Virus record (IMG/VR): IMGVR_UViG_3300023235_000012
Coordinates: 1 to 64,000 of that record
Source: a virus
Reading direction: 5' to 3' (one strand)
DNA: 64,000 nucleotides
In this document: one piece after another, positions 5,578-50,615 of the stretch
Layout: each line of letters begins with the position of its first letter
How positions within the stretch are numbered: the first letter of the stretch is position 1
Translations under genes and position numbers: made by a program
Notes under the pieces: model-generated
Database searches by the model: none
Told to the model about the DNA's origin: nothing
The model's input: the letters and a program-made list of their open reading frames with translations, nothing else

Positions 5578-5585
5578 GAAGAAAA

Positions 5586-6315: not shown

Positions 6316-6496
6316 TTTTTTAAGAACTCCTTAGGAAGAAATATTACGAACCATCCGAATACCAAGAAAAACAAGAAGAAGATTAAGACGAATCCATTGG
6401 ATTCATCAAAATTTGCCGAAATATATGGATACAGTATGATCTGTTGATAAGTCCAGACAACACAAAACCAAATCTTTGCGATATAAAATAAAGCAT

Positions 6497-7810
6497 TCAT
6501 TTTTCGGAAACCTCCCAACGGACATCGTTCATCAATTTACGAACACGATCAATCTTGGATCCAGTCGTGGTTTGCTTGATCAGATAATTTCGAACAACTT
6601 CAAATGCATCCTTACCATCGTACAAAGCAAACATCAGATTCTGGATTTCTGGTTCTAATGCATCGTTGTTCTTAACGAAATCCAGAGCAAACATCTTCTT
6701 GCGTTCGTGTTCACCATTTTCGAACATTTCAAAGTTCTGTTCGTCTAAAGCAAAATCTGCACGATTATATTCGCTCATCAACTTACGACCTAAATCGAAG
6801 CACGCTTCGTTCAATTCTTTCTGGAACGTGTCGAGTCGATCTCGTTGATCTTCCATTAAAATCGCCTTCAGGTCATCGGCCTTGTCTTCAAGAACAATGC
6901 GCCAAACATCTTTCTCCTGCTGAAGGTGCGAAACAGCCTTATGCAATGAAAGATAGATGTCAGCCTTCACCTTCAGCATGTGACCATCTTCAAATCGAAT
7001 CACATAACCTTCGATTTCTTTATCTTCTCGAGCTTCCTCGATAAATTTTTCCATGGTTTCTATCGTGCCAGCGTATTGTCGAACTACTTCTACATCTAAT
7101 GCTTCACCGACACGCAAAAGAGTTTCGTGGGGCTCGTATTCACCAGTCTGATTGTCGCGGATTGCTAATAGGACCAAACGATCCTTTGGATGGTCAACTA
7201 CTATTCGATTCTTGCGTGAACAAAACTCAAAGATTGGAGTCTTCGCAATTGCAATAATTAGCTTACAAAATTCTTCGTAACCATTGTAACCGTCTTCTTC
7301 GTCTTGCTTTTCAACAAAACTATAGACTAAACTAGCTACATCAGTTGCACCCATTTTGGTGTGCCACTCAATTTCACCATTCCGTAGGAAAGGAGTGATC
7401 ATGCTGCCGTCGAGCTTTTCGAGGATCACGTGATTTTTGTCCCAGTCAATCTTCTTGAACTCCGTCTCCCGACGTTCGCCAAGATTAAAAAATTTGTGGA
7501 ACTTTCGAGCAGCGACCGTACCGTCTGGATAAAAGGTCAAACCGCGAAGTTCACGTAATATCTCAGAAAAATTTGCTTCACACGATTGAATCATCGCATT
7601 ACCGGTTTCTGAATCAACTCCTTCGATATCAAAAACCACTAAGCCCGTATCCGGGAACGTAGTAGGCATATTCACCAGATAATTGAACACAATAAAGCCG
7701 TCGCGCTGAGCTTCAATGAATTCGGTCTTACCGTCATTCAAAGAAGCATGCCAATCGATAGCATCGCGAACCTGCTGTATATTTGTAATCTCTGGAAATT
7801 CGTATTTCAT
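6497..7810 (-). CDS. rnlA: RNA ligase 1 (T4 RnlA family)
   Basis: ELRGLTF, KFHKFFN, EKLDGSMI, FEFCS, EGYVI, KVK motifs. Confidence 0.92.
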   Translation of the reverse strand: MKYEFPEITNIQQVRDAIDWHASLNDGKTEFIEAQRDGFIVFNYLVNMPTTFPDTGLVVFDIEGVDSETGNAMIQSCEANFSEILRELRGLTFYPDGTVAARKFHKFFNLGERRETEFKKIDWDKNHVILEKLDGSMITPFLRNGEIEWHTKMGATDVASLVYSFVEKQDEEDGYNGYEEFCKLIIAIAKTPIFEFCSRKNRIVVDHPKDRLVLLAIRDNQTGEYEPHETLLRVGEALDVEVVRQYAGTIETMEKFIEEAREDKEIEGYVIRFEDGHMLKVKADIYLSLHKAVSHLQQEKDVWRIVLEDKADDLKAILMEDQRDRLDTFQKELNEACFDLGRKLMSEYNRADFALDEQNFEMFENGEHERKKMFALDFVKNNDALEPEIQNLMFALYDGKDAFEVVRNYLIKQTTTGSKIDRVRKLMNDVRWEVSEK

Positions 7811-23140: not shown

Positions 23141-23770
23141 TTAAATGCGTGCACCAACTATTTCCCAGTCCACTATTTTCCAGAACTCATCCACCCATTT
23201 GTTCTTATCTTCTTTGTAATCAAAAAGATAAGCGTGTTCCCACATATCAATCACTAGCACCAGATTAGACACCACTTTATGATTTGATATCTGTGTGATT
23301 GTCCCTGAACGGGTAAGGGCGGTCCATCCATCTCCTTGAATAGAGGTAGCTTTATCCTTGAACTCTTTTTTAAACTTCGAAAAGGAGTCGAAGTTTTTCT
23401 TGATGAAAGCCAGCGACTGCATATTTTTCAAAGAACCATCGTGCGGAACAGTAAGCTGCTCAAAGAACTTCTGATGAAGGAAAGCACCAGCTCGTTGGAA
23501 CTCGTCACCGGTTTGATTGAATTTTTCGACATAATTCTTATAAAGCTTGTTGTAATGTAGATCGACTGTTTCTTCTGAAGAAACCGGATCCAATTCATCT
23601 ATCTGGAAACCCAAGGTTGTTCTTCGAAGTGGTTCGGGTGCTTCGAAGATGAAGTCTTCAAACTCAGCCGAAAGCTGTTCTATTAGACCAGTTGCCCGCT
23701 GTTCTTTGTTTTTCTTTTCTTGTCTCTTGAAGAGACCATAGACGTCATCAAAATCCAAATCTTTTTTCAT
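23141..23770 (-). CDS. sod: Fe/Mn superoxide dismutase with N-terminal extension
   Basis: LHYNK, FLH, QGDGW, IDMWEHAY; TAAATA at 23776-23781. Confidence 0.88.
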   Translation of the reverse strand: MKKDLDFDDVYGLFKRQEKKNKEQRATGLIEQLSAEFEDFIFEAPEPLRRTTLGFQIDELDPVSSEETVDLHYNKLYKNYVEKFNQTGDEFQRAGAFLHQKFFEQLTVPHDGSLKNMQSLAFIKKNFDSFSKFKKEFKDKATSIQGDGWTALTRSGTITQISNHKVVSNLVLVIDMWEHAYLFDYKEDKNKWVDEFWKIVDWEIVGARI

Positions 23771-26015: not shown

Positions 26016-26504
26016 TTAAGGGTGAAGCTTGAAATTTCCAACCACTGCCGAAAGCATTGGATCGTTCTTGTCCCCAAAGATAAACCCGCAGGTATCTTCC
26101 ATCCGGAACGTCACTGTCTTATCTCCAGCCGGGATACAAGGACTAGTCCAACGAACATCGTCGATGTTCACTGCTTCCTTGTCTAGAAACGCAGGATAAG
26201 TCGGATCAGTTACAATATCAGCAACGAAACCTAGTTTATCTGCAACCAAATTCGCTGTACGCATCTGTGCCTCAGTTACACCCAGAACCAGAACCGTACC
26301 AAAACCTTGGCTAGTTTCATTCGTCCATTTGTTGAACAACTCGTCGCTTTTACTCAACTTTTCTCCGAGATATTCTTTATCTCCTGTGTCCATCATATGC
26401 ACGAAAGCATTCGATGCGTGACTTGCCTGTGCCATCGCCTTGCCTGGATTCATGCTTGGCAGATCAGTTCTCATCAATATATATAGTACCGGAAATTCTT
26501 CCAT
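26016..26504 (-). CDS. peptidyl-tRNA hydrolase 2 (Pth2)-like protein
   Basis: YILMRTDL.SMNPGKAMAQASHA, W, D.T motifs. Confidence 0.8.
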   Translation of the reverse strand: MEEFPVLYILMRTDLPSMNPGKAMAQASHASNAFVHMMDTGDKEYLGEKLSKSDELFNKWTNETSQGFGTVLVLGVTEAQMRTANLVADKLGFVADIVTDPTYPAFLDKEAVNIDDVRWTSPCIPAGDKTVTFRMEDTCGFIFGDKNDPMLSAVVGNFKLHP

Positions 26505-26728
26505 CTTTGCTTCCTCTTAATTTCTTTGTCTTATGAGTTAAGGACAACCATGATTGTTACTGGGTTTCAGTTTCAAACCAAGTTCCTTGCATTTGTCTTC
26601 CATTTGTTTGAGATTCAATTGAGAAGTGTCGACGCCAACTTCTGAAAGCATCTTTCTCCGCTTAATTACGTGCTGTACGAGCCAATTACAATTTTGCATC
26701 TCAACGTCCTTTCCTACAATGTACCTTT

Positions 26729-26757
26729 ATAATACACTCTATTTTGGCTTTTGTCAA
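26729..26757 (-). promoter_or_regulatory. sigma70-like early promoter
   Basis: TTGACA-N17-TATTAT on minus. Confidence 0.6.
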
Positions 26758-27194
26758 GGAGAATTTGCAAGCATTTCGAGTTCAGGATGGCGATAGACGC
26801 TTTTTCGAAACTCTTCTAGGAAATTGTCCATTACGTCGCGGCCATCTGCATAGATTGGCCAATCTTGACCAGTGAGTAATTTAGCGAAATTACTCAGGAG
26901 CAAATCACGAGGACTGCTGTCAAAAATACCACCGCCGTTTACTTCGTTTTCGAAAGTCCACCATTCTTCGTTTTTTGGCGTTTCTGAGAAACCTTTCTGA
27001 TAGGCAGGATCATCCGCAAGTGGAAAACCAGCAGATAATGCTTCGTAATTCTGATCAATGAATTTTTTAGTTGCTTTGATCAAAGCGTATTCATCGAAGA
27101 TTTCAAGAAGATTGGAGTAACCTTCATCAGTTAACGAATTTTGCATTGAATTACCTTTCTTTACATTTCTTTCAATATTTTCGTAATTTAACAT
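26754..27194 (-). CDS. hypothetical protein
   Basis: ORF; probable true start MQNSL. Confidence 0.6.
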   Translation of the reverse strand: MLNYENIERNVKKGNSMQNSLTDEGYSNLLEIFDEYALIKATKKFIDQNYEALSAGFPLADDPAYQKGFSETPKNEEWWTFENEVNGGGIFDSSPRDLLLSNFAKLLTGQDWPIYADGRDVMDNFLEEFRKSVYRHPELEMLANSP

Positions 27195-27214
27195 CTTTTA
27201 GGTGAGAAGTCAAA

Positions 27215-28372
27215 TTAAAGAAGGTCTTCTTTTTTTGATTTGAAGTCAGAAGCGATCCATTTCGCCTTGAGGTCCCGCAGAGTCATACCTAGTTCTTTAC
27301 CTGGTTTCATACCTCTATCAAGTAGATCTTGGCCAGTTACAGGGAAAATAGGAATCACCCAGTTTTCAATTTCATCTGGATTCTTCTCCTGAATCCTCAA
27401 AACATCGGCGAACAACTCCTTGATCCATTCTGGTCTCTTGTGCTTGACAATCTCTTCTTTCATCTTTGAAAGATCCCAAGAGTCACTTTTGAGTGTAGTC
27501 AGATTTTGCAGACGTTCGTGTTCGTCAGTGCTTAGTTTCCATTTCTTATTGAGAACAGATGGCTGATCTTTATTTACAATTGCAGCCAGAGTCAAAATAG
27601 CATCACCTTCCTTCGAAAACTTCAATCCATCGAAATTATCAATATCCAAACCAATCAATTGATCAACTCCGGTATGAATCATAGGTTCCAATGCTTTCTC
27701 TGCATTCGGAGTAGAAAGGATTTTCTTCATTTCCGTCCATACCCGTTCACCACTGATATTCTTGAGGCCCGGTGCATGTCTTGTAATTGCATTGAGTTCA
27801 TCTTCGGCCAGATTATGATTGTATCGAGCCGCGAAACGGAACATTCGCAAAATTCGCAGATAGTCTTCTTCAAAGCGTTGATTTGGGTCACCTACTGCTC
27901 GGGTAATGTTGTTCTTGAGATCATCCATTCCGCCGAAGAAATCATGAATAGTACCGTCCAAATCCATAAACATTGAATTGTAAGTAAGGTCTCTTCGAGA
28001 AGCATCCTTCTTGAAATCTTTGGTCCATTCGACTTCTGCGTGGCGTCCATCATGGTTTTTGTCGATACGAAGAGTAGTGATTTCATATTCTTCTTTTGTC
28101 TTGGGACCTAGAACGGTGATCGTTCCATGCTGCAGACCAGTATCAATAGTTCTGAAGCCTTTGAGGATTTTTTTCATCTCGCTGGGCGTGGCAGTTGTTG
28201 CAAGATCAATGTCTTTTGGTTTCTTTTTTAAAACTAGATCACGCACCGCTCCACCGGCAAGCTTGATATCATGGCCATTGGTCTTAAATTTTTTGAAAAT
28301 AAGACGAAGATCATCGTTAACAAACGATGCTTCTGCATTTTCCAGTAGATTGAAAATTTCTTTAATCTTCAT
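27215..28372 (-). CDS. cca: CCA-adding tRNA nucleotidyltransferase (class II)
   Basis: GGAVRDL, DIDLAT, EITTLR, DASRRDLTYNSM, EDYLRILR.FRF, SGERVWTE; start MKIKEI after GGAGAG. Confidence 0.93.
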   Translation of the reverse strand: MKIKEIFNLLENAEASFVNDDLRLIFKKFKTNGHDIKLAGGAVRDLVLKKKPKDIDLATTATPSEMKKILKGFRTIDTGLQHGTITVLGPKTKEEYEITTLRIDKNHDGRHAEVEWTKDFKKDASRRDLTYNSMFMDLDGTIHDFFGGMDDLKNNITRAVGDPNQRFEEDYLRILRMFRFAARYNHNLAEDELNAITRHAPGLKNISGERVWTEMKKILSTPNAEKALEPMIHTGVDQLIGLDIDNFDGLKFSKEGDAILTLAAIVNKDQPSVLNKKWKLSTDEHERLQNLTTLKSDSWDLSKMKEEIVKHKRPEWIKELFADVLRIQEKNPDEIENWVIPIFPVTGQDLLDRGMKPGKELGMTLRDLKAKWIASDFKSKKEDLL

Positions 28373-28387
28373 CTTTCTCTCCATTGT

Positions 28388-28436
28388 TATTTATTGTAAC
28401 ACATAAAGTCTCTATGTAAAGCTTTTCTATTAAATA
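28388..28436. promoter_or_regulatory. back-to-back TAAATA late promoter motifs
   Basis: TAAATA minus 28388-28393 (cca) and plus 28431-28436. Confidence 0.6.
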
Positions 28437-28474
28437 CAACCGTTAAGACCCATTACCTTAACGATGAGGAAAAG

Positions 28475-28756
28475 ATGGAAACTATTTTAAAATTCTTTTT
28501 AGTTATAATAGATGGAAATCCTACCATCACTCTTATCGGTATTTTATTCCTAGTTATTTCGGGATTAATTTTTGCAATAAAAAAACTCTGGGACAAGAAT
28601 AAATTTTATGAAACTCATGCTCTTCAACTTACATCTGAATATGTCGAACGGTTAGATAACATGGTTAAAGAATATCTTAGGCAGCAAGAAATTACTGCTG
28701 ATGCTTTGAAAAATGTCCAACTCGTTTTGGCAGAAATTAAAGGAAAGATAAGATAA
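28475..28756 (+). CDS. single-TM coiled-coil protein, putative holin
   Basis: N-terminal TM (ITLIGILFLVISGLIFAI), basic stretch, coiled-coil tail; GAGGA SD. Confidence 0.5.
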   Translation: METILKFFLVIIDGNPTITLIGILFLVISGLIFAIKKLWDKNKFYETHALQLTSEYVERLDNMVKEYLRQQEITADALKNVQLVLAEIKGKIR

Positions 28757-28757
28757 A

Positions 28758-30110
28758 ATGTTATCAAAAGCTGTTACAAAATTCCCAATGATAAATCAAA
28801 ATCAAGATTTATTACGAAGACTAGAAGATAGCAATCAGAATTTAGAAAGATTGGCACTAAAGACAAGAGATATGTCTGATGATTTAGTATCTAATCTCAA
28901 AAATAAGAATAGAGACATTAAAAGACAATTTTTTGAGCTTGCAGCTGTCGTTCAAGATGGTCTAGTGATACTAAACAAAGATGGGATTATCACAGATTTT
29001 AGTCCACCGAGTGTCAAAATCTTTGGCTATTCCAAAGAAGAAGCATTAGGGAAGAAAATTGATCTTTTCTTGGAAAAAGATCTTTTAGAAACATTCAATC
29101 AATTACTAAAAAATATTACTGATCCGAAGATCAGTATGAAAAATGGTTACGCTATTCGAAAAGATGGAAACAAGATCAATATTGAATTTACTGTTTCAAA
29201 ACTTACACTAAATGATGAACCTTATGATTTTATCGTTTTTCGAGACGTGACCAAACAGATCCAATATCAATTAGAAATTGAAACTACGAACAAAGTTCTG
29301 ATTGTTGTTGCCGAATGCTCAAAACTTTGGACAGTAAATGATTGGAGAGATTCAATCGATTTGGGATTAGAGAAATTAGGTTTAGCTATTGATGCATGTG
29401 CTGTCGGCGTTTATGAGATTAAAGGAGAAATCTGTAAACTCCAAAATATTTGGAAATCAGAAGACAATGATTTAGACTTAGAAGAATTCAAAGATGTCGA
29501 AAAAATCAACACTAAATCTTTAAATAAGAAGCTGTTTAAAAAGCAAATCATAACTCTAGATATTGAAAATCAAGACGATGCAAAAATACTCAAAGGGACA
29601 AAGCACAAATCTCTGCTAATTGTTCCAATCATTTCAAATGAAAAATTGTGGGGATATTTCACTGTTCACTTTACAAAAGAACGAAAAGAATGGTTTAGTC
29701 AGGTGATTCATTCAATTGGAACTTTGGCAGATATTTTAGGTTCTGCGTTAGAACGAAAAGGTCGAAAGAAAGAAATTCATATCCTCCAAGAGACTCTTAA
29801 TAATCTATCGGATTCTCTTCTTATCGCTAATTCTGAAGGCGATATTCTTTTTACGAATAGAGCCTTCTGTAAAGAAATTGGAAAAGATTACAAAGACATC
29901 ATCGGAAAGAATTTCTGGAAAGGAAATAAATCACTTCCTGAAGACTTTTGGACGACACTTGAGCAAGGAGAAACTTGGCAAGGTCCAATTAATCTCCAAA
30001 GTGGCAGAGGAAATATGACGACTGATTCGGTTGTTGTTCCAGTCTTGAACGGTAATCGACAAAAGCCATCATATTTCATCGCAATAAAAACTCCTTTTAG
30101 AAGGAATTAA
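28758..30110 (+). CDS. PAS-GAF-PAS sensor protein with no output domain
   Basis: PAS (IFGYSKEEALGK..RKDG..FRDVT), GAF (SLLIVPI..LWG), PAS (FTNRAF..FWTTLEQGETWQG); no kinase/GGDEF. Confidence 0.85.
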   Translation: MLSKAVTKFPMINQNQDLLRRLEDSNQNLERLALKTRDMSDDLVSNLKNKNRDIKRQFFELAAVVQDGLVILNKDGIITDFSPPSVKIFGYSKEEALGKKIDLFLEKDLLETFNQLLKNITDPKISMKNGYAIRKDGNKINIEFTVSKLTLNDEPYDFIVFRDVTKQIQYQLEIETTNKVLIVVAECSKLWTVNDWRDSIDLGLEKLGLAIDACAVGVYEIKGEICKLQNIWKSEDNDLDLEEFKDVEKINTKSLNKKLFKKQIITLDIENQDDAKILKGTKHKSLLIVPIISNEKLWGYFTVHFTKERKEWFSQVIHSIGTLADILGSALERKGRKKEIHILQETLNNLSDSLLIANSEGDILFTNRAFCKEIGKDYKDIIGKNFWKGNKSLPEDFWTTLEQGETWQGPINLQSGRGNMTTDSVVVPVLNGNRQKPSYFIAIKTPFRRN

Positions 30111-30348
30111 AATATAGATCTATTCCTCTAAGAAAAGAGGCTGAATTTTCACTGTTAATCTTGACTTCGAAAGGAAGAACACGTCCATCTTTAAAACCGT
30201 GACGAGCAGTTACTCGACCAGCTACTCGAAGGTGAGATCCGTCGTCATCTGTGATTTGAACAGATGCAGTCCGAAAACCTTCTCGGGTAACTTTGCCTAA
30301 ATTAGCACGGGAAATTTTACCGTTCGGAAGTTTTACTCTTACACTCAT
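30097..30348 (-). CDS. hypothetical protein
   Basis: 83-aa ORF, AGGAG SD. Confidence 0.65.
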   Translation of the reverse strand: MSVRVKLPNGKISRANLGKVTREGFRTASVQITDDDGSHLRVAGRVTARHGFKDGRVLPFEVKINSENSASFLRGIDLYFNSF

Positions 30349-30409
30349 TTTGAACTCCTATTGTTGTAAAATACAATAATAACAAGATCTATAGATCTTT
30401 TCAATAATT

Positions 30410-31264
30410 TTAAAACCACATCGTGTTGATCTGCATTGGCGGTAAGCTTTCTTCTATAAACTTCTTGTCTTTTCGGACAATAGGAAACAGAGCACTATCT
30501 ACCTGATAAGGAAAGATATTATTCCTCTTCGCAAGCTCGTCGGCAATGTCAATAGCAGCTGAACGGAAAGCAGTGACTTCAGCAGACGATGGATCTAGCA
30601 GCTTTTTGTTGATCAGCTTGGCTTTGAAATCATCATCGATCTCTATCAAGCCAAAATACTCAAAGATTCTCGGCATCTGATAATCTGAGGGAATCGGAAG
30701 CGGATTTTTAACCCGATGACCCATATAAGACAACCATTCAGAAGCGAACAATAAAACCAACAGAGCCTTCTTCTTTAAGGGATCTTCACCAAACGATTCT
30801 GGATAAATTTCAATCAATTTATCAAGCTCTGTTCTTCCGAAGAAGAAACTTTTAGTAATCAGACCCTCACCTATGATGGTATTATATAATTTTCTTTTCT
30901 TCACAGGATCCATGAATTCCTTGATAATAGCTTTCCTTTTTTCCAGGTAAGGCTGGCCTTCCATGGTTTCGAAAACCTTTTCATCGAGGGCAGGGAACAT
31001 TTTTTTGTTTCGAAGATCGTTGATCCAGGAATTAACAGCTTCAGATCCTGAACCATTCTTTTCCCATTTCCAAATTTTTCCGTCTCTTTCTTCAAAGAAC
31101 CCACCTTGCATCGCTGCGTTAAAGGCGAAAGAAAAAGGCATTTCAAAAACAGTGACTGAATCACCTAAGATCCACGACCAGGCAACCGGCAGCGGTGCTT
31201 TATTTTTAAAATATTCATCCAGAATTCCAATTCGATCTAAATTTATCATCTTAATACCTGCCAC
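30410..31264 (-). CDS. queuosine salvage (DUF2419/QNG1)-like protein
   Basis: DPLKKKALL, PSDYQMPRIFEYFGLI, EVTAFRSA, VDSALF. Confidence 0.7.
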   Translation of the reverse strand: MAGIKMINLDRIGILDEYFKNKAPLPVAWSWILGDSVTVFEMPFSFAFNAAMQGGFFEERDGKIWKWEKNGSGSEAVNSWINDLRNKKMFPALDEKVFETMEGQPYLEKRKAIIKEFMDPVKKRKLYNTIIGEGLITKSFFFGRTELDKLIEIYPESFGEDPLKKKALLVLLFASEWLSYMGHRVKNPLPIPSDYQMPRIFEYFGLIEIDDDFKAKLINKKLLDPSSAEVTAFRSAAIDIADELAKRNNIFPYQVDSALFPIVRKDKKFIEESLPPMQINTMWF

Positions 31265-31767
31265 ATTTCCGAAACGTATTTTGCTTGATAAATCGCATCA
31301 TCAAGAGCATCATGTTGAACACCTTCAAAAGAAATTTGGTCTTTTTCTAGAATCCCTCGAGCCATATGAACTACGGTACGAACATCACGTGTATTCCAAA
31401 ATTTCCATGGTGCTTGATCTCGACCATAAGCATTTTCCAAGATTGTGATATCAAATGTTGAACCATTTCCCCACACGTATGGATTAGCCCATCCACAAAA
31501 ATTTGAAAGATCCCTCAAGGCAGTCTCGACTGGAACCGTCGGTAAATTGAGAAGTCGTTCAATGGCTGATGGTTCTTGCGCAAACCACCATCGCAATGTA
31601 TCACCCGAAACCGTTCCGCGTTTAATGGCATCATTCCAATCTATACCGATATGGAATTTGTCTCCGATTTCACCTGTTTCTGGATCAAAGAAACACGCAC
31701 CGATAGAAATAATGGCTGCGCGAGGACCAGTGTCAAACGTCTCCAAATCAATCATGACGTGTCGCAT
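31246..31767 (-). CDS. DEDDh 3'-5' exonuclease
   Basis: MIDLET, WGNGSTFD, RDVRT, HDALDDA. Confidence 0.9.
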   Translation of the reverse strand: MRHVMIDLETFDTGPRAAIISIGACFFDPETGEIGDKFHIGIDWNDAIKRGTVSGDTLRWWFAQEPSAIERLLNLPTVPVETALRDLSNFCGWANPYVWGNGSTFDITILENAYGRDQAPWKFWNTRDVRTVVHMARGILEKDQISFEGVQHDALDDAIYQAKYVSEMWQVLR

Positions 31768-32033
31768 TATAATAACTCCTTTTTCATTTTTTGGATTTGA
31801 CCGAAAGTACACTCTCCGTGAATCTCAATCTCTTCTTCTGTTTCAATCCAAAGCTTCGCACCACAGCTTAATGGATTGTCAGAATCATAAATCATTCTAC
31901 TTGGACCTTTGATGTCGATCGAATTACCATATCAAACTTTGGATCCTTCTTGTACTCTACATACTGGCAACTTCGTACCATTTTTCGAATTATATTGAAT
32001 CACGTTCTTATTGATGTGTATTAATTTCTTCAT
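31767..32033 (-). pseudogene. phage gene with one in-frame TGA at codon 34
   Basis: MKKLIHINKNVI...SKV[TGA 31932-31934]YG...PLSCGAKLWIET...ELL*; TAATG-coupled to next gene. Confidence 0.65.
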
Positions 32034-32043
32034 TGTTTTCCTC

Positions 32044-32304
32044 TTAAAAACACGGATCGCCACAGTTTTCGCACCATCCGCTCATGTTTCGTTTTTCATT
32101 CGCGCAGCAAGGATACTTTCCCTTGGCGTGTCCGAGTTTCTTAATATGAGCCCATAACCATTCTGGTCTTTTTTCATTTCTACATTCAAGATCAAGTGCA
32201 AAAGAATGAACTAATTTTGAATATTCAGCATGTGTCAATGTAAATGTGACGTCATCGATTAAAACATCAAGGTTAGTCGTCCAATCGTTTGAATATTCAA
32301 CCAT
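32044..32304 (-). CDS. hypothetical protein with C-terminal Cys cluster
   Basis: CC...CENCGDPC. Confidence 0.55.
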   Translation of the reverse strand: MVEYSNDWTTNLDVLIDDVTFTLTHAEYSKLVHSFALDLECRNEKRPEWLWAHIKKLGHAKGKYPCCANEKRNMSGWCENCGDPCF

Positions 32305-32731
32305 TCATCTTTTCCTTAACAAATGTTCCAGCGAGCTTCATGTCGATGGAAGAGCCATGCTCTTTCTTTAAATAGCCCATCACCTTGCCCATATCTTTAA
32401 TAGATGAGGGGTTGGTCGCTTTGATAGCTTGCTCTACTATCTTAAAGGTTTCTTTCTCATCCATCTGCTTTGGCAGGAAACCCTCGAGAACGCTGATTTC
32501 AAAATCAGGCTCATCTGTCGACCGACCGGCCTGATCCAAGAGATCACGGTTTCCAAGAGCTCCTTTCATGAACTTTTCTGCGAGCTTATGGACGTCTTCA
32601 TCTGTCGCTTCTCGGTTATTGTCGTCTTTTGCTTTGGTCTTGACTTCAGAAAGCAAGGTGCTAAGAAGAATTGCTTCTCTACTCTTGTTCTTCCTTGCTT
32701 GGATACTTCTTTTCTTTAGTTCTTCAAACAT
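32297..32731 (-). CDS. GatB/YqeY domain protein
   Basis: EISVLEGFLPKQM, KDMGKVMGYLK. Confidence 0.88.
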   Translation of the reverse strand: MFEELKKRSIQARKNKSREAILLSTLLSEVKTKAKDDNNREATDEDVHKLAEKFMKGALGNRDLLDQAGRSTDEPDFEISVLEGFLPKQMDEKETFKIVEQAIKATNPSSIKDMGKVMGYLKKEHGSSIDMKLAGTFVKEKMNG

Positions 32732-33023
32732 CTTTTCTTTCTCCATCAACCCAGACACCATCGTCTGTTACTTTTATTCTTTGTCCTTGGTGCTTCATCC
32801 CGTTTATTGTTGTGGAAGCTTTTCCATCGTTTGAGTTCTGCTCGACACTGAACAGATCAAACTTGTGGTCATGAAAGACCGCGTTTTTTACTGTCGGCGG
32901 CAAATCCGGGTGCCAAACATTGAGTCGAAGGTTCTTGGTAAGATAGAGCTGAACGAAACCAACACCATGGAACCGAGGTTTGTGTTCTCGTGTCCGCAAA
33001 AAATTATAATCGGCTTGTGTCAT
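32724..33023 (-). CDS. chimeric ORF: cupin-like N-terminus fused to an unrelated tail
   Basis: HGVGFVQL..RLNVWHP..FHDHKFD then abrupt change of sequence character. Confidence 0.45.
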   Translation of the reverse strand: MTQADYNFLRTREHKPRFHGVGFVQLYLTKNLRLNVWHPDLPPTVKNAVFHDHKFDLFSVEQNSNDGKASTTINGMKHQGQRIKVTDDGVWVDGERKDV

Positions 33024-34204
33024 TAGGCGAGCTCCGTCCCTCCTTTTCTCAACAAATATTTCGGACTGACGAATTTCAATTGAACTCGGCCGATAGTGTC
33101 ATCTTGACGCTCTTCTTTAGGGCGGATGACGATACCTTCACGAATGTTCGAACCACTAAAATCTTTTCCATCTCGGATTTCTGTCATCTTCTCCATAGAA
33201 AATGGTCCGCTATACAGAATAGGAACTGTCTCAATTTTCAAGCTATTAGCAAGGAAATGTAAATCAATTGGATCTAGATAACGTCCTTGGCCCGGCTTTC
33301 CAACATAAACATCAAACAATCTAAATTCAGGCATTGAGGTTCCGTAAACTAAATCCTGAACACCTCTACCGAAAACTTCTCCGAGCAGATAGATCGGCTC
33401 CGCTCGATCTGAAAGGTTAATCAGACGTTCAAGAAGATCGAAACCTTGTTCATCTCTTGAACGTTCAAGAACCTGAAGGTAAAGATTCTTTGTCATGTTT
33501 TCTTCATCCATTTCGAACGCTAAACCGCGAGCCGATAGTCCTTTACTGGAAACCACCTTGACTGCACTTGAATCTTCGTTCGGATAGAAACCATAACAGC
33601 ACCAGGTTCCGTGAAGCTTTTCTGTTACACTGACACATTCATCTTCTTTGAAGACATTGGGATAACGTTGAATGTTTTCAATGTCATATTTCAACGTCTT
33701 TCCAGATGCATTCCAAACCTTCCCAGACATTGAGGCAGGGATTGGAGGCTCATATTTGGTGACACCAAGCAAGTCAGAAACATCAACTCCAATTGCTTCT
33801 TCAAAGGCATTTTTCCCCTCAGCAATAATATATCTCTGATCAGATCCCTGAACCGTAACAAAATGATAATCATCTTCTGTTTCAATGATTACAGGCATCA
33901 AAATTCCCTGTGAAAATATTCCCCTTAATTTGATGGCCTTTACCCGATCACCTCTGGATCCAGCGAGACCACCTTTGCCTTTTTCTTCGTCCCAGAAACC
34001 CATTTTTTTCAAGAGCCATTCAGGTACTAGAGCCTGTTCTGGAATATAAACGACCAGATCATCTTTCTGATAGCGCCATGATCCATCTTCTTTCTTATTG
34101 GCGATACAATTATACCCACCAATCTTGACAATGGTCAAGCGATCTGCATCGGGATGTTCAACGACATCATCGATCCGAACCACATTAACTTCAAATTCAG
34201 CCAT
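33023..34204 (-). CDS. RNA ligase, DRB0094/Rnl5 family
   Basis: N-terminal OB (HPDADRL, LRGIFSQG), TEKLHGT, GEVFG, REGIVIRP, QLKFVS. Confidence 0.92.
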   Translation of the reverse strand: MAEFEVNVVRIDDVVEHPDADRLTIVKIGGYNCIANKKEDGSWRYQKDDLVVYIPEQALVPEWLLKKMGFWDEEKGKGGLAGSRGDRVKAIKLRGIFSQGILMPVIIETEDDYHFVTVQGSDQRYIIAEGKNAFEEAIGVDVSDLLGVTKYEPPIPASMSGKVWNASGKTLKYDIENIQRYPNVFKEDECVSVTEKLHGTWCCYGFYPNEDSSAVKVVSSKGLSARGLAFEMDEENMTKNLYLQVLERSRDEQGFDLLERLINLSDRAEPIYLLGEVFGRGVQDLVYGTSMPEFRLFDVYVGKPGQGRYLDPIDLHFLANSLKIETVPILYSGPFSMEKMTEIRDGKDFSGSNIREGIVIRPKEERQDDTIGRVQLKFVSPKYLLRKGGTELA

Positions 34205-41537: not shown

Positions 41538-42008
41538 TTATTGAACAAGCCCCATCAAATAGCCTTCACCTTTAACTAACGAGATAGATTCTTTTCTGTT
41601 GATTTTGGGAGAGACATAAGAGCAATGAACCCATCCTGCGGTTGGGACTCCTCGTTGCGCAAATTCAAGGATGAGCTGATCGAAGTCTAAATAGTTTTCT
41701 ATAAAACTAGCAAGATCAAAATTTGAAATCCCTGGGATTTCAAAATCTACTGCCTCACCCTTGGCGTGTTGACTAGTATCTTTTGAACCAATTTTTCTGT
41801 TAAGTTCTAAACAACGGAAACCAGAATTAGGCGAGAATGGAATCCCAAAATGATCCCGACATGGCTGAAGAATATTAATAGCAATTAATTTGAGTTTTTG
41901 GATGATGAGTTTATCAGTTGGCCAGTTGTCAATTCCGTGACGATCAGCGGTGCTTGACTTAACCATTTCGGCTAGAGTAAAATTAGAAGATAGGCGAATA
42001 TTTTCCAT
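41538..42008 (-). CDS. peptidase M15A family endolysin
   Basis: LSSNFTLAEM, SGFRC.ELN..IG, SQHAKGEAVD, WVHCSY. Confidence 0.88.
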   Translation of the reverse strand: MENIRLSSNFTLAEMVKSSTADRHGIDNWPTDKLIIQKLKLIAINILQPCRDHFGIPFSPNSGFRCLELNRKIGSKDTSQHAKGEAVDFEIPGISNFDLASFIENYLDFDQLILEFAQRGVPTAGWVHCSYVSPKINRKESISLVKGEGYLMGLVQ

Positions 42009-42023
42009 TGTATCCTCGTTTGG

Positions 42024-44498
42024 TTATTTTGCTAAAGCAGAGACTCTGCTAAGAATAGGTAAATCATTGTGGTTGTTCTGGCTTACCGTTACATCTGATT
42101 CAGTTTTTAATGCAATATCGGCCATCGCCAAGAAGATATAATCACCACCATTGCGGTTTATCTGATCATCAGCTGTTCTAATTTTGAAACCATTGAAGAG
42201 AAAATCTATTTCTTCACTTCCAGTAGTCTCAGCGGTGTTGATTTCAGCTAGTAGCTGATCGTCCATCTCGTTAAATGTACTTCTAGATGTATCATACATG
42301 AACCAAGATCCAATCACATCCAATCTTTTGATAAGAACAAATCTTGATTTGAAACCCGTATGAGCGTAAGCGCCGTCGACCAAACCATTACCAGTATAGC
42401 TTCCTACTTTGCAAACTCCATCAACTGATCGAAAAGCATAGCAGATTATAGGATCCGGTGACCCGTTGGATCTATTATGGGTTCCTAAGGTGATAACACT
42501 GGCATCTGCATCAATATCATTGAAAAGCTGTGAACTTACATTCGTAATGGCGCTAGTGGTAGGAGTCAAATAATTAGTTCCGCCATAAATCAAGGTTTCT
42601 TGTGCAGTCCAATCTTCTACATCACTTAAATTCTTGAACATCATAAATTGTGGTACACCCTGAAGACCATGACCTATAGTCGCACCGCCTGTTCCATTAC
42701 CCGTATAACTGATAATACTGAAATGACCAGGTTCAGCTACGCTAACGGTGCTAGTGATAGAGCCCGAAGAGTTGGTAACTCCTGTTCCGCCACCTGCTAA
42801 CCAATTCCAAGAAACATAATCTTCTAAATTAGTGTTTACTTTGACATCGGCACCTAAAGAAAAACCATCACTGTCAAATGACGTGATCGTATCAGCGTCT
42901 GTTGCTTCGGCTATCGTGGTATCGATACTGATTATTTCTCCGGCTCCTCTTATAGAATCGGTTAGAACATGACTGTCGGCGGCTGTGCGATTTTTGATCC
43001 AAATCAAATCGGGTTGAAAACCCAAACCAGTGATGCTTTTTGTTGAACCGTTTCCTTCATAAGTGCTAGCTTGAAAATAATCATTAGCAAGATATGCTGC
43101 TTTCGGAATACTTGAGATTTTTAAAATTTTCTCATTACTTGGAGCAGTTGCACCAAAATCCCAATCTTGAATTGAAGATCCACTACCATCAGCATATCCA
43201 CTTGCAAAGGTTACCGCCACCGTATTATCAAAGCTAATAGGTCCCTGGCTACTGCCATTCTTCCAGAAGGTCACTTCACCATTATCAGTATCTATTTTAA
43301 TACCGATAAGAGTAAGTGTTCCATAGCTTTCACCATATGTTGTACCAGTCCCATTAATATATTTTTTTCCATTTAAGGAATATCCGATAGAAACTAAACC
43401 TGTCGCTGCATCTCCTGGATAACGAGTGATGGTGCTTCTATAATAGAAACCTTCTCCAACGATTCCAACCATTGCTCCAGATACATTAGTCGTCATTGTT
43501 ACTTCGGCATAATAACTTCCAGAATTTGGAGGAGCAAAAATTGAAGCTTGAGCACATCCTTGCCGTGAACTGCGCCATCGCAATGCACCGTCCGAAATCG
43601 TACCGTCATTAGTCAATATATTGAGAACTGTTTTTTGATTTGACGGAGTGTCGTCTGTTCCATTAGTAGCATGATCCATTATGGTTGGAGTAAATCCATT
43701 CCCATTTCCACTTGCATCAGTTCCGTCACCTATTCCATCTGTCAAACAGAACGCATTGCCACCTAAAGAAGTAGCTAAGGCCGTTATTTCTTCATCTGAC
43801 CGTGGAGTCCATTCTTGTCTTCCGGAGCCTACTGTTCTAAAAATTCCGAAATCAGTCACAGCGTGATCACTATTCTGAATTGACACCTGCGGTAATCCTA
43901 AAACCTGAGAGATGTATATCGCTCCAAAAGCTGAAGCACTATCTTTTCCGATGCGGATTTTATTGACTGTATTGAACCAAGATGGGTTCGCTGTAATCGC
44001 TACGTCTGTTCCCCAAGTTATTTCTAAACCATTAACATAAACAGAAAGATCAGGAGATCCACCTTGTTCTACACTTACAACGAAATGATACCAACCAGTA
44101 TCTCTAAAGACTTGATCACTGACATGGGCATTATTATTTAGATTGACTCGTAGCTTATCATCGGCATCAAATCTAATAATTTCTTCATTGCCACTGACAT
44201 CAGTGCAGATAATTGGAGAAGTTCCTGCAGCCGAAATTTCTGTTCTTTTTACCCAAAATGAAAGGATAAATCTGACGCTTTCTTCATCGACGCCAAAAAG
44301 ACTAGTCTGCTCTAACATCTCATCAGTTCCGTTAAACCAGGCCGATTGATTAATCTCACCCTGGTTTAACGTATTCCATACTCCAGCTTCTTGATATTGC
44401 TGAACCCTGGACAAACCCCAAGGTCTTGCGAAATTTCCACTAACTTGATCCTGGAGTTCTTTAGCCTGAGAAGCTGTCAATACTGTCTTTTGTGTCAT
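42024..44498 (-). CDS. tail fibre/receptor-binding protein with LamG and SPRY-like domains
   Basis: FRDTGWYHFVV, YYAEV, GFQPDLIWIKNR, YTGNG repeats. Confidence 0.8.
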   Translation of the reverse strand: MTQKTVLTASQAKELQDQVSGNFARPWGLSRVQQYQEAGVWNTLNQGEINQSAWFNGTDEMLEQTSLFGVDEESVRFILSFWVKRTEISAAGTSPIICTDVSGNEEIIRFDADDKLRVNLNNNAHVSDQVFRDTGWYHFVVSVEQGGSPDLSVYVNGLEITWGTDVAITANPSWFNTVNKIRIGKDSASAFGAIYISQVLGLPQVSIQNSDHAVTDFGIFRTVGSGRQEWTPRSDEEITALATSLGGNAFCLTDGIGDGTDASGNGNGFTPTIMDHATNGTDDTPSNQKTVLNILTNDGTISDGALRWRSSRQGCAQASIFAPPNSGSYYAEVTMTTNVSGAMVGIVGEGFYYRSTITRYPGDAATGLVSIGYSLNGKKYINGTGTTYGESYGTLTLIGIKIDTDNGEVTFWKNGSSQGPISFDNTVAVTFASGYADGSGSSIQDWDFGATAPSNEKILKISSIPKAAYLANDYFQASTYEGNGSTKSITGLGFQPDLIWIKNRTAADSHVLTDSIRGAGEIISIDTTIAEATDADTITSFDSDGFSLGADVKVNTNLEDYVSWNWLAGGGTGVTNSSGSITSTVSVAEPGHFSIISYTGNGTGGATIGHGLQGVPQFMMFKNLSDVEDWTAQETLIYGGTNYLTPTTSAITNVSSQLFNDIDADASVITLGTHNRSNGSPDPIICYAFRSVDGVCKVGSYTGNGLVDGAYAHTGFKSRFVLIKRLDVIGSWFMYDTSRSTFNEMDDQLLAEINTAETTGSEEIDFLFNGFKIRTADDQINRNGGDYIFLAMADIALKTESDVTVSQNNHNDLPILSRVSALAK

Positions 44499-47195: not shown

Positions 47196-50100
47196 ATGAC
47201 TTACGTCGGAAACTCAAAGACAGCAGGCTTGGATTTTGGTCAGCTAACATTCTCGGCGACGGGTAATGGGATCTTAGTCGATTTTACGCTTCCAGAAAGC
47301 CCTGGAGCTGATGGAGCAATTGACGTCTGGGTGGGTAACGTCTTCCAGTCTTACGATGCTTATTATACCAACGGGACCATGCTTACCTTCACTGAAGCAC
47401 CAGCAGATGGTGCTCCTATCTATGTAAAATATCGAGGGAAGGGTTTTGGAATTGATGTCAGTTCAGATGTTATCTCCGATGGTGATTTTAAGAAAGGAAT
47501 AACACTCGATAAATTAGCGTCAGGGACAGCTGGCAACGTCATTAGGTATGTTAATGGTGTAGCAACATCGCGACCTGAAGAAGAATTAGCTGATCCAAAC
47601 GATAGAAAAGAAATTTTCTTGAACAGCAAGATGATAGCCGAGAACGCCGGTTTCGCTGTCCATCAAACTGTAGATGGCATTACAGATTCATACACCTTCT
47701 CAGATGGTGTTGTAAATTTAGAGAATTGGGTTTCCTCTGATTATGATAGAGTAAGCCAGTCGGCTTGGTTAGACGGTACGGCTGATAATCGAACGAAAAC
47801 TTACGGTGGTGCTGGTGATCAGACGAAATGGATCATGAGTGCATGGATTCAACGAACTGAATTTAGTATAGATTCTTATTTTTTAACTGCAGACACTACT
47901 AGCCGTTCTATTATTGGTTTTGACAGCAGCAACAGGTTGCATTTTAATAACCATACAGGCGCGGCGGACAGACTTCGTGTTTCTTCTCGAGTGTTTCGAG
48001 ACACCGAATGGCTTCACGTTTTAATCTCTTGGGATACAGACGCCGCCTACGTAGGAGACGCCAAGCTAGAAATTTATGTTAATAATGAAGCTATTACAGC
48101 TTTTGACACTTCAACTGGAGTAATAGGTGATGCCGATACCGGAAAGATTCTAGGTACTGCAATACATCATCTAGGTGGAAATTCTACAGAAACTTTTGCT
48201 GGGTTTATTTCTCAATTCAGTATAATGGATGGAGTATCTTTACAAGCAGGTGATTATTCTACTACTGATTTCGGAGAATCAATCATCGTCGGAAGCAAAA
48301 CGATAGAATGGGTTCCGAAAACAGACGCCAGTGTCGTCGCTGTGGCGACTGCTGCCGGTGGTAATTCAGTCTGCATGACGTCAGCAATTGGAGATGGAAC
48401 TGACGCCAGTACCAATGCTAATAATTTCACTGCTGCTGGTGGAAGTATGGATCACGCAACCAATGGATCAGATAATTCACCGTCAAATACTCTGTCGATT
48501 TTTAATATTATTCATCCTACTGATTCAGGTTTTGCTTATGCAGATAAAATTCGCACAATTACCTCGTCGGGAACTGGAGGATTTGCAGTAACGACTATCC
48601 CGTTCGATGTTGAAAGAAATTTCTATTGTGAATTTGATTGTTCAACTATGAGCGGTTCAAGCGCTAACATGGGAGTTGGCATCATTTCGGTCGATGCGTA
48701 CAACATTGGCGATCTGCCTGCCGTATCAGCTAATGCTTATGGTTATAATACTGACGGAACACTTCGCAACAATAACAGTACTAGTGCTTATGGTAATAGT
48801 TGGATAGCAACTGATGTTATCGGTATTCATGTTTCAGGTGGTACATTGGTGTTCGAGAAGAATGGTGCCGGACAAGGAAATGCTGTCACTGGATTGACTG
48901 GAAAATGGTTCATTGTTCTTTGGGATGATTCAGCTAATACTCTTGCTGGAACGTTCTACTTTGATGTTGTTGAATGGACCCAGGCATCGCCTAGTGGAAC
49001 TTTACCAATTGATACAAAACATGCGACTTCATCTCCAGAAAACCAAGGATTTGGTTGGTTCAATACAGTAACCTATACTGGAACCGGGGCTTCACTTGCA
49101 AACTCTGATGTAGGATTTGAACCTGCATTGGTTTGGATAAAAAATCGAGAGACCGGTACAACAGATAGTCATCAAATTTATGATTTTATCAGAGGATCTC
49201 AACAATCTTTAAGTTCTGATGTTGATGCTATAGAAACAACGGTTGCACAAGGATTAACCAGTTTTGATGTTTCTGGATTCACCGTTGGAACCGATGTTGC
49301 TCACAATACAGTAAGTGAAAATTATGTAGCTTGGTGTTGGAAAGCTGGTGAAACCAGCGAAGCAAATACAGATGGCACAATCAATACGACAATAAGTGTT
49401 GCAAAACCAGGACATTTTAGTATTGTAAGAATGCTTTCGGCTGATGCTACAGGAGCGAACGCAACTCTGGGTCATGGTCTTGGTGGTACACCCGAATTGA
49501 TTATAGGTAAGAGGACTAGTTCTGCAACACAATCTTGGCCAGTCTATTCGGAATATCTTATCGCGGGAGATACACTCTATCTTGACACTAATGCATTAAC
49601 AACGACATCTGCTACTACCTGGAACAGCGGAAGCGGTATTAACAGCACCGTGTTTCCGGTTGGAAGTAGTAATGATACCAATAATTCTAGTTCTGATTAT
49701 GTTTTCTATTGCTTCCGATCTGTTGATGGAGTTTGTAAAGTAGGAAGCTATACTGGTAATGGTGCTGTTGACGGGCCATTTGTTCATCTTGGATTTAAGC
49801 CACGCTTTATATTAATCAAGCGAACAGACGTCGCTGGTTCTTGGTTCATGTATGATACAGCTAGGAGTATTTTCAACGAAATAGATGATCAGCTTTTAGC
49901 TGAAATCAACACTGCTGAGACCACTGGAAGTGAAGAATTAGATTTCCTTGGAACTGGTTTCAAAATCAGAGCAGTTGACGCTCAGATAAATGCTACTGGT
50001 GGTGATTATATCTATCTAGCAATGGCTGATTTTGCTGAACAGAAAGATAGACATTTGATCGAGTCTGGAAGTGAAATGACGTTGATTTCGATGGCTCAGA

Positions 50101-50615
50101 CAGCGTCGAGCCAACCAAACAAAGGGTGGATGGTTATTGAACATGAAGCGATTGATTCAGTGATTGTCAACACCGACGTCAAAGCTTGGATGACAAGAGA
50201 CGATGGACAGACGGTGACTACCAATTTCGCTGTGAACAGTAAATTTTCACTGTCTTCTCATCCTTTCGTTGCTGGTGATAGGGTCATCTTAACCAGCACC
50301 GGGAACCTTCCTGCTGGGTCGTCCGCAACGACCCTCTACTATATCGTCAACACCGCTGCAAACGATTTTGAACTTAGCTTGACATCGGGCGGTGCGACAA
50401 TCACGCTGACCGGAGATGGGACCGGGACACATGAAGTGGTTCAGTTCGAGCAAGGAACCTTAGAGGAAGCAAACAACGTTTACGATGATTTGAAAATTCT
50501 CTCGGCGTACGTCGATTTCAGTAACCTTCCAATCGGTACTTCTGTTCGTTATCTGGTCGAAACGTTGAATAATAAAGGACAAGCAATTTTATCGGCTTCT
50601 ATGCAATGGGGTTGA
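47196..50615 (+). CDS. long tail fibre, paralog 3 with LamG/SPRY insert
   Basis: Same terminal modules plus a central cassette homologous to 42024..44498. Confidence 0.8.
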   Translation: MTYVGNSKTAGLDFGQLTFSATGNGILVDFTLPESPGADGAIDVWVGNVFQSYDAYYTNGTMLTFTEAPADGAPIYVKYRGKGFGIDVSSDVISDGDFKKGITLDKLASGTAGNVIRYVNGVATSRPEEELADPNDRKEIFLNSKMIAENAGFAVHQTVDGITDSYTFSDGVVNLENWVSSDYDRVSQSAWLDGTADNRTKTYGGAGDQTKWIMSAWIQRTEFSIDSYFLTADTTSRSIIGFDSSNRLHFNNHTGAADRLRVSSRVFRDTEWLHVLISWDTDAAYVGDAKLEIYVNNEAITAFDTSTGVIGDADTGKILGTAIHHLGGNSTETFAGFISQFSIMDGVSLQAGDYSTTDFGESIIVGSKTIEWVPKTDASVVAVATAAGGNSVCMTSAIGDGTDASTNANNFTAAGGSMDHATNGSDNSPSNTLSIFNIIHPTDSGFAYADKIRTITSSGTGGFAVTTIPFDVERNFYCEFDCSTMSGSSANMGVGIISVDAYNIGDLPAVSANAYGYNTDGTLRNNNSTSAYGNSWIATDVIGIHVSGGTLVFEKNGAGQGNAVTGLTGKWFIVLWDDSANTLAGTFYFDVVEWTQASPSGTLPIDTKHATSSPENQGFGWFNTVTYTGTGASLANSDVGFEPALVWIKNRETGTTDSHQIYDFIRGSQQSLSSDVDAIETTVAQGLTSFDVSGFTVGTDVAHNTVSENYVAWCWKAGETSEANTDGTINTTISVAKPGHFSIVRMLSADATGANATLGHGLGGTPELIIGKRTSSATQSWPVYSEYLIAGDTLYLDTNALTTTSATTWNSGSGINSTVFPVGSSNDTNNSSSDYVFYCFRSVDGVCKVGSYTGNGAVDGPFVHLGFKPRFILIKRTDVAGSWFMYDTARSIFNEIDDQLLAEINTAETTGSEELDFLGTGFKIRAVDAQINATGGDYIYLAMADFAEQKDRHLIESGSEMTLISMAQTASSQPNKGWMVIEHEAIDSVIVNTDVKAWMTRDDGQTVTTNFAVNSKFSLSSHPFVAGDRVILTSTGNLPAGSSATTLYYIVNTAANDFELSLTSGGATITLTGDGTGTHEVVQFEQGTLEEANNVYDDLKILSAYVDFSNLPIGTSVRYLVETLNNKGQAILSASMQWG

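Follow-up and report, generated by a model that had tools for sequence, protein, structure and literature searches.

A two-gene unit at positions 28475 to 30110 is the subject of this analysis, which covers the first 64,000 bases (64 kb; hereafter, the window) of the 137,267-base viral record IMGVR_UViG_3300023235_000012, whose completeness is put at 37% by CheckV. The first gene encodes a single-pass membrane protein of 93 residues, and the second a 450-residue sensor protein that carries PAS, GAF and PAS domains and ends without an output domain. Judged by sequence comparison, the pair appears to be a self-contained accessory cassette of some T4-related jumbo phages (Rak2-like and Atu_ph07-like). 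The reading preferred here, to which we give slightly less than an even chance, is that of a sensor that acts late, is tethered to the membrane and has no possible output other than the membrane protein; most likely it tunes the timing of lysis or of another membrane event. The cassette would then probably tie a late membrane event, such as the bursting of the cell, to the state of the host.

The pair is made up of two plus-strand open reading frames (ORFs), one of 93 aa at 28475..28756 and one of 450 aa at 28758..30110, with a single base between them (TAA-a-ATG). Both flanking genes lie on the minus strand, namely a gene for a CCA-adding enzyme (27215..28384) and an 83-aa ORF (30097..30348). 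An earlier note on this DNA had described a lone plus-strand two-gene unit behind a TAAATA element, and its account of the sequence was borne out at every point checked. The features of the cassette are the following, where TM denotes a transmembrane segment and UTR an untranslated region.

28431..28436, plus strand: TAAATA, like the -10 element of T4 late promoters, 38 nt before the ATG of the small gene (read directly).
28439..28465, plus strand: inverted repeat (hairpin) in the presumed 5' UTR, between TAAATA and the ribosome-binding site; the scan for terminator-like structures gave an 11-pair stem, minus strand.
28466..28470, plus strand: GAGGA, ribosome-binding site of the small gene (read directly).
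28475..28756, plus strand: 93-aa single-pass membrane protein, with a TM at about residues 17-35 and a long cytoplasmic helix predicted.
28758..30110, plus strand: 450-aa cytoplasmic sensor protein without an output domain (Pfam, AlphaFold2, no TM segment).
28785..28949, plus strand: N-terminal helical region of the sensor, residues 10-64, its position kept in all five homologues.
28953..29255, plus strand: PAS1, residues 66-166, nearest to the heme PAS domains of DosP and FixL, with Phe113 at the position of the proximal His.
29256..29753, plus strand: linker helix and GAF, residues 167-332, with the invariant Cys187 in the linker helix and LWG..H in the last strands.
29796..30089, plus strand: PAS2, residues 347-444, nearest to the flavin-type PAS domains of MmoS, NifL and Aer.
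30125..30140, plus strand: weak terminator-like hairpin just past the sensor stop codon, with a 5-pair stem and a T-poor tail.

Gene context was read at four loci: the window, the metagenome contig L002, Sinorhizobium phage Phosso and Agrobacterium phage Atu_ph07. Beyond the window, the cassette lies at these positions.

L002, 9696..11314.
Phosso (L018), 5001..6550.
Atu_ph07 (L019), 4705..6557.

At all four loci, a member of the small-protein family is followed by a multi-PAS protein without output at a spacing of -4 to +2 nt, and the pair stands as a lone plus-strand unit among minus-strand genes. Conservation of the pair, which had been proposed earlier as a check on its meaning, is thus found wherever the context was read, which is more than an accident would give. 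In L002, a 93-aa family member ends 2 nt before the sensor gene, and the neighbours are those of the window, with a divergent CCA-adding enzyme gene upstream and a homologous small minus-strand gene downstream. Phosso (469 kb) was first reached by a weak tblastn match of the small protein (E 0.3). Its 81-aa protein is a clear member of the small family (hhalign 99.2%, E 1.6e-19), and its gene overlaps the next one by one base. That gene encodes a 434-aa protein, named "PAS domain S-box protein", in which three PAS domains are present and an output is lacking. Atu_ph07 (490 kb) was found in turn via the Phosso proteins, and here gp048 (81 aa) overlaps gp049 (536 aa) by 4 nt.

The sensor itself has few full-length relatives. 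Among 5.8 billion proteins there are two, P0002 (45% identity), which is encoded by L002, and P0003 (38-39%). The remaining matches are partial, at E 3e-12 or weaker, and most cover a third of the query or less; one of them, P0006, spans 91% of the query at 21% identity (E 1e-6). The nearest cellular homologues are distant, the best reaching E 3e-12 over 28% of the query. For both P0003 and a small protein, P0027, the longest contig on record measures 10,840 bases, which suggests a further paired lineage beyond the four loci that were read. Against the Phosso protein, the window sensor aligns by BLASTP over residues 15-176, the N-terminal helices and PAS1 (E 5e-9).

The five sensor homologues (those of the window and L002, P0003, the Phosso protein and Atu_ph07 gp049) share 16-45% identity, and all end directly after the last PAS domain with intact reading frames. 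The middle domain varies by lineage, being GAF, PAS or an extra domain. What the cassette appears to keep, as far as these alignments tell, is four things: the small protein, the N-terminal helices of the sensor, PAS1 and the output-less end. Neither HisKA nor HATPase_c was found by Pfam in any of the five. This bears on gp049 (L019 4947..6557; NC_042013.1 36599..38209), which is annotated as a "multi-sensor signal transduction histidine [kinase]" and in which Pfam finds PAS domains only; by its domain content gp049 is not a histidine kinase, and the annotation, which this domain analysis corrects, is misleading. The same comparison bears on whether the pair is a recently captured, truncated fragment of a host sensor kinase with a chance ORF upstream, decaying and devoid of function; a sensor recently truncated from a host kinase is among the outcomes that, by the earlier note, would undo its proposal. 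The low GC of the cassette relative to its flanks and the annotation of gp049 as a histidine kinase fragment speak for such an origin. Against it stand the full-length architecture, intact frames and common end point of the five homologues, the conservation of the upstream ORF as a family, and the lack of a close cellular donor among the 5.8 billion proteins. A recent truncation was thus not borne out, and we regard a decaying fragment as extremely improbable.

Within its own lineage the cassette is not universal. The portal protein of the window is 47-48% identical to the portals of Rak2-like jumbo myoviruses of about 350 kb, and matches to PHROG families in the contig include a T4-type DNA polymerase, topoisomerase II, portal and virion proteins. 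The profile of the small-protein family (A4) matches Phosso (2.9e-19) and Atu_ph07 (5e-15), and gave no true match in three of three Rak2-like relatives chosen by portal similarity. The cassette is therefore accessory. A hit to g093 of fHe-Yen9-04 (family profile E 8e-4) was rejected, as its translation is devoid of the family motif. Searches for further loci returned none in viral contigs (queries A1, which is the sensor, A5 and P0049), where the match L007 was discarded as a partial match to the TM only, and none in genome contigs (queries A3, which is residues 36-93 of the small protein, and P0049); in metagenome contigs L002 alone was found. With the window sensor as query, tblastn against cultured phages gave no match at 1e-3. 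The sequencing runs that contain the stretch carry the label salt lake metagenome, and four DNA runs compared with it gave identical contig pieces throughout, with zero variants.

Composition and surroundings set the cassette apart as well. It is AT-richer than its surroundings at the four loci (GC fractions of 0.323 vs 0.40, 0.385 vs 0.422, 0.474 vs 0.494 and 0.321 vs 0.373), and only 1% of equal-sized windows in the window are as AT-rich. Such a composition would fit a unit that is mobile or evolves separately. The neighbours are tRNA and RNA-repair genes in the window and L002, and virion structural and unknown genes in Phosso and Atu_ph07; since they differ between loci, the cassette behaves as an autonomous insert. 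TAAATA precedes the small-gene ATG at every locus, by 38 nt in the window, 36 in L002, 38 in Phosso and 48 in Atu_ph07, and it occurs within 80 nt upstream of 31 of the 180 crude ORFs of the contig that holds the window. The pair probably has its own late-type promoter and is probably translated in a coupled manner. The hairpin at 28439..28465 lies upstream of both divergent genes, which argues against its being a terminator; it could instead be a regulatory structure of the 5' UTR.

The domain order of the sensor agrees with that given in the earlier note, PAS-GAF-PAS. Pfam assigns PAS_9 to residues 67-166 (E 4e-21), GAF to 255-331 and PAS_4 to 347-391, and finds no kinase, cyclase or DNA-binding family; the protein has no TM segment and stops 6 residues past the last PAS strand. 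For the PAS families (PF13426, PF00989), PAS_9 reaches 75.6 bits over two stretches, the cut-off being 27, and both PAS domains exceed the cut-off in the genome search. The GAF domain (PF01590) is marginal, just above its cut-off (23.4 bits against 22.4), and that of the homologue P0002 reaches 29.4 bits. In the AlphaFold2 model (mean pLDDT 74) the N-terminal helices lead into the first PAS domain; a long linker helix joins this to GAF, and another helix joins GAF to the second PAS domain. The PAS folds lie at residues 68-163 and 353-444 and a GAF helix and strand pattern at 196-332 (pLDDT about 80-90), and the N-terminal helices (10-24 and 29-64) are at low pLDDT, about 50-55. Of the N-terminal coiled coil claimed earlier, these helices are what is predicted; a coiled coil there is putative.

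With regard to ligands, PAS1 matches the heme PAS domains of DosP and FixL at E 1e-8 to 1e-11. When phmmer aligns PAS1 with DosP, without gaps, Phe113 stands opposite the His of RPAH in DosP, which we take to be the proximal F-helix heme ligand; Phe113 is invariant in the three close homologues. Canonical heme binding by PAS1 is thus unlikely, and with it the sensing of oxygen by heme that the earlier note had entertained. PAS2 matches flavin-type PAS domains, namely those of MmoS (3ewk, E 7.8e-14), NifL (2gj3, 3.2e-6) and Aer (8dik, 0.0019), and in the alignment with MmoS it has 5 residues fewer than MmoS in the pocket segment that follows GK(N). The last 50 or so residues of the GAF domain weakly resemble cyanobacteriochrome GAF domains (E 0.012 and weaker). 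The sole invariant Cys, C187, sits in the linker helix between PAS1 and GAF, and the GAF body has no Cys. When the whole model was submitted to Foldseek, the top matches were phytochrome PAS-GAF-PHY cores, PpsR and DosP, at TM-scores of 0.22-0.30, so that the match is to a string of domains and not to their arrangement.

The 93-aa protein has one hydrophobic segment, at about residues 17-35, and its AlphaFold2 model (from an alignment of 23 sequences, mean pLDDT 89.8) consists of a short helix, 2-12, and a continuous helix, 16-92. It has no meaningful match in Pfam or PHROG, Holin_BlyA appearing at E 0.09. A word-based search returned three close relatives, each of exactly 93 aa, and a profile search of 1.84 billion representative proteins returned 22 family matches at E <= 1e-3. 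All but one of these (21/22) are 81-122 aa long; the remaining protein, of 603 aa, was matched solely via repeated TM-like stretches, and in this search, run without a length limit, no fusion of the TM protein to PAS was seen. By these comparisons the proteins form a new family of small membrane proteins, comprising at least 22 clusters and having no Pfam or PHROG entry. In the family alignment, the N-terminus is short and acidic, the TM follows, and the very last residues, VLAE(I/L/M)KGK(I/L), are strongly conserved; in the close relatives, a small-residue motif in the TM, G30xxxA34, is conserved too. In 22 of the 23 family members, K and R are more numerous behind the TM than ahead of it, and in the remaining one the two counts tie. 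By the positive-inside rule, the tail and its VLAEIKGKL end are accordingly predicted to be cytoplasmic (N-out/C-in), which would place the helical tail in the same compartment as the TM-less sensor. A reading as an Rz-like i-spanin was rejected, given that the predicted orientation is opposite to that of i-spanins and that no lipoprotein partner is present. Spanin families were weakly matched among the 23 members scanned, phrog_214 by two and phrog_5151, 2466, 1152 and 739 by one each.

Together, these features suggest how the cassette may work. The product of the first gene would have a short N-terminus outside the cell and, in the cytoplasm, a helix of about 55 residues that carries the conserved C-terminal motif. 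That of the second would be soluble and cytoplasmic, with N-terminal helices followed by three ligand-sensor domains (here PAS-GAF-PAS). The N-terminal helices of the sensor may dock it onto the helix that the membrane protein exposes to the cytoplasm. The state of the PAS and GAF domains, as set by ligand or redox, would be passed on by helix-helix contacts, altering the oligomerisation or activity of the membrane protein in the inner membrane. The membrane protein is taken as the output because the sensor has no enzymatic or DNA-binding part. The 137 kb hold no candidate for a phosphorelay partner, that is, no other PAS and no receiver domain, and the sole HATPase_c belongs to topoisomerase II. 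A two-protein tethered sensor is therefore the simplest arrangement, given also that the membrane protein and the N-terminal helices are the sole conserved parts outside the sensor domains. The combination of a late-type motif and a membrane target makes the timing of lysis or permeabilisation the likeliest effect, that is, a modulated time of membrane permeabilisation late in infection, with the pair in the role of an accessory holin-like or antiholin-like timer and not of the main holin. Physical binding, late expression, a ligand and the link to lysis are all things that we infer. A complex prediction for the full sensor with residues 36-93 of the small protein gave 0.00 and 0.00, was run without controls, and speaks neither for nor against binding.

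A bolder form of this reading is possible, if doubtful: that the cassette is a new mode of lysis control in lytic jumbo phages, in which a PAS/GAF sensor binds a holin-like tail and gates its assembly with neither a phosphorelay nor a transcription step, so that lysis or depolarisation would be set by the metabolic or redox state, the sensor domains being exchangeable between lineages.

Several observations weigh against a tethered sensor that times lysis. TAAATA was dropped as a late-only marker, as it also lies upstream of the genes for DNA polymerase, topoisomerase and QueE; since it precedes replication genes as well, it is not a clean late-only marker, and late timing is only putative. 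The cofactor ligand expected in PAS1 is missing, no ligand can be named for any of the sensor domains, and these might sense nothing. The small protein matches no holin family, PF10960 (BhlA) being unlisted for it at E <= 1, and hhalign gives the family profile a probability of 14% against SPbeta BhlA. An endolysin or spanin gene adjoins the pair at none of the four loci. In the window the pair sits within a tRNA and RNA-repair cluster, 11.4 kb from the gene for the M15 endolysin, and in Phosso and Atu_ph07 none of ten neighbours matches a lysis PHROG. Finally, context was read for four of about 24 family members, and the pairing could be less strict than it appears.

Several of these points also tell against the strict version of the earlier note, by which the 93-aa protein is a true BhlA-type holin that releases the M15 endolysin and the sensor is a cytoplasmic antiholin set by oxygen or redox state. 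The topology does fit. BhlA/TpeE holins, of about 8-10 kDa, cross the membrane once near the N-terminus and continue as a helical tail in the cytoplasm that is partly amphipathic (accessible text of PMC9527704), and the small protein has its TM at about 17-35 within the helix that runs from 16 to 92. Family membership does not stand, however: PF10960 was not among the best 25 of 65 families for the 23 members (E <= 0.1), whereas SPbeta BhlA, the control, scores 3.3e-25. Weaker pointers exist in the BhlA-type PHROGs 1625 or 2429, which share a PHROG-style product name with SPbeta BhlA and are weakly matched by 3 of the 23 members (best E 0.0034), and in an Atlas feature search in which rank 26 (score 0.89) is a cluster with 64% PF10960 carriers, a lead only. 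The contig offers no other Pfam holin, none being found among its 7 other small TM candidates, which favours the strict version; the record holds 37% of the genome, so the real holin may lie elsewhere. PF11031, the T holin family, had no match in the 137 kb, and as control genomes were equally silent this is uninformative. The M15 endolysin itself (41538..42008) was confirmed, matching Peptidase_M15_3 and the endolysin family phrog_894. The distribution also counts against it: an essential holin would be expected in the close relatives, and the gene is absent from all three that were tested, so that the small protein cannot be the essential holin of the lineage. With lysis linkage seen at none of four loci, and with an invariant Phe in place of the heme ligand of PAS1 besides, the strict version is judged distinctly unlikely. 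We read the small protein instead as the membrane partner and effector of an accessory module.

Evidence from Atu_ph07 leaves room for such a module. The accessible text of the paper on this phage places lysozymes at gp141 and gp699, and its authors, who found no holin, give the mechanism of lysis as unknown. With no Pfam holin among the 7 other small TM candidates of the present contig either, the part of a membrane protein in lysis is not yet assigned. In L002, no lysis gene is in view beside the pair.

Loose from the lysis genes, the pair could also serve to interfere with host signalling. The small protein would then only anchor the sensor at the inner membrane, and mixed PAS dimers would block or hijack membrane-bound kinases, chemoreceptors or cyclases of the host. 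PAS domains commonly dimerise, the output-less multi-PAS design is conserved, and both PAS1 and PAS2 are most like the PAS domains of bacterial sensors (DosP, FixL, MmoS, NifL, Aer). The lack of linkage to lysis genes also fits a decoy, as does an accessory cassette that is AT-richer than its flanks, a trait of many host-takeover morons. Cellular proteins are very distant from the sensor, however, no specific host sensor is mimicked, and one target would have to be common to rhizobia and salt-lake bacteria, hosts that differ widely. A late-type promoter motif fits host takeover poorly, and the strong conservation of the C-terminal motif in the small protein points to a role beyond passive anchoring. 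A decoy function is on balance unlikely, if less so than a true BhlA-type holin.

The missing or undemonstrable cofactor ligands raise the question of whether the PAS and GAF folds sense anything, or form a membrane-tethered scaffold that might help to assemble or localise late processes at the membrane, for instance virion assembly or DNA packaging. The late-type motif and the virion structural proteins among the neighbours in Atu_ph07 and Phosso would suit such a role. The middle domain is swapped between lineages (GAF vs PAS), however, as is typical of modular sensors and not of fixed scaffolds; conservation is strong inside the PAS and GAF cores, and the distribution of the cassette is accessory. 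A scaffold is accordingly held to be quite improbable, below either of the last two proposals, and the tethered sensor with a membrane output is retained as the preferred reading.

With respect to known systems, the small protein is most readily compared with BhlA/TpeE/UviB (PF10960, TCDB 1.E.27; SPbeta BhlA is yomB), which are likewise small and phage-borne, with an N-terminal TM and a helical tail. The tail here is longer (about 55 residues) and has its own end motif, and at the loci read the protein is always paired with PAS domains. SPbeta bhlA lies between bhlB and blyA, whereas the small gene here is not beside an endolysin gene, and the hosts are Gram-negative (Agrobacterium, Sinorhizobium) rather than Firmicutes. 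In T4, the holin T is timed by the antiholins RI (periplasmic) and RIII (cytoplasmic) in lysis inhibition (accessible text of PMC8385771, PMC11413866). The likeness is of a single-TM holin that is timed by a signal-sensing partner, RIII acting from the cytoplasm as the sensor would. There is no sequence relation, and the large periplasmic domain of T is nearly absent from the small protein. PAS and GAF domains are lacking in both RI and RIII, and the cue in T4 is superinfection, in place of the cytoplasmic ligand or redox state supposed here. Vibriophage VP882 encodes a PAS receptor, VqmA_Phage, that links a chemical cue to the lysis decision (accessible text of PMC8284805). VP882 is temperate, and its receptor acts as a transcription factor by way of a DNA-binding domain, whereas the present sensor lacks a DNA-binding part, is coupled to a membrane protein and occurs in apparently lytic jumbo phages. 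DosP, FixL, MmoS, NifL, Aer and the bacteriophytochrome PAS-GAF-PHY core resemble the PAS and GAF domains by sequence or fold; unlike those multi-sensor proteins, the sensor here has no kinase, phosphodiesterase or other output. Phytochromes have a bilin-binding Cys and a PAS-GAF-PHY core; their cores reach TM-scores of 0.23-0.30 here, and the only invariant Cys of the sensor is in the linker helix.

The type of system is thus already known, both as a single-pass lysis or membrane protein controlled by a partner and as a phage-encoded PAS receptor. The earlier note knew of no described phage system like this pair. For the literature searched that statement stands, as no paper was found linking PAS to jumbo phages or to phage holins or antiholins; PAS, GAF, holin and sensor are not mentioned in the comparative paper on jumbo phages (PMC7824862), nor histidine kinase, signal transduction, PAS, holin or sensor in the AP-J-162 paper. 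The pair itself is nevertheless present, without comment, in two phage genomes that have been published or deposited. The genes of Atu_ph07 are deposited and published, those of Phosso are deposited, and neither pair has been interpreted so far; the accessible text of the Atu_ph07 paper does not mention gp048, gp049, PAS or kinase.

To our knowledge, the lysis timing of large lytic phages is mostly unknown outside the lysis inhibition of the T-even phages, and the cassette could directly link host physiology to a late membrane event. Its two cultured carriers, Atu_ph07 on Agrobacterium tumefaciens C58 and Phosso on Sinorhizobium meliloti, are genetically accessible together with their hosts, which puts the question within immediate reach of the bench. 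Even if lysis is not concerned, an exchangeable PAS/GAF sensor combined with a one-pass helix is a compact signalling design that would interest sensor engineering.

Other genes of the window may be noted alongside the cassette. The dense tRNA and RNA-repair cluster that surrounds it spans 26016..34204 and includes PTH2, the CCA-adding enzyme, a Q_salvage-like protein, an Rv2179c-type 3'-5' exoribonuclease, a YqeY-like protein and an RNA ligase. At 23141..23770 (minus strand), 4.7 kb from the cassette, lies a gene for an Fe/Mn superoxide dismutase (Sod_Fe_C, E 8.5e-24; Sod_Fe_N, E 3e-7), a second redox-related gene in this region of the genome.

Two cell-wall hydrolases were noted in the window. 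The gene for the M15 endolysin (41538..44498 region, minus strand) is directly downstream of one for an 824-aa virion or tail-fibre-like protein (phrog_19943/24898), and by this adjacency M15 may be a virion-associated lysin, instead of or besides an end-of-cycle endolysin. The second hydrolase, at 55710..56240 (minus strand), is of the SleB type (Pfam Hydrolase_2, E 4.8e-14) and has an N-terminal, signal-like hydrophobic segment, by which it may reach the periplasm without a holin. Large proteins encoded at 42024..44498 (minus strand) and 47196..50615 (plus strand) share the virion and tail-fibre PHROGs 19943 and 24898, and look like paralogous receptor-binding proteins.

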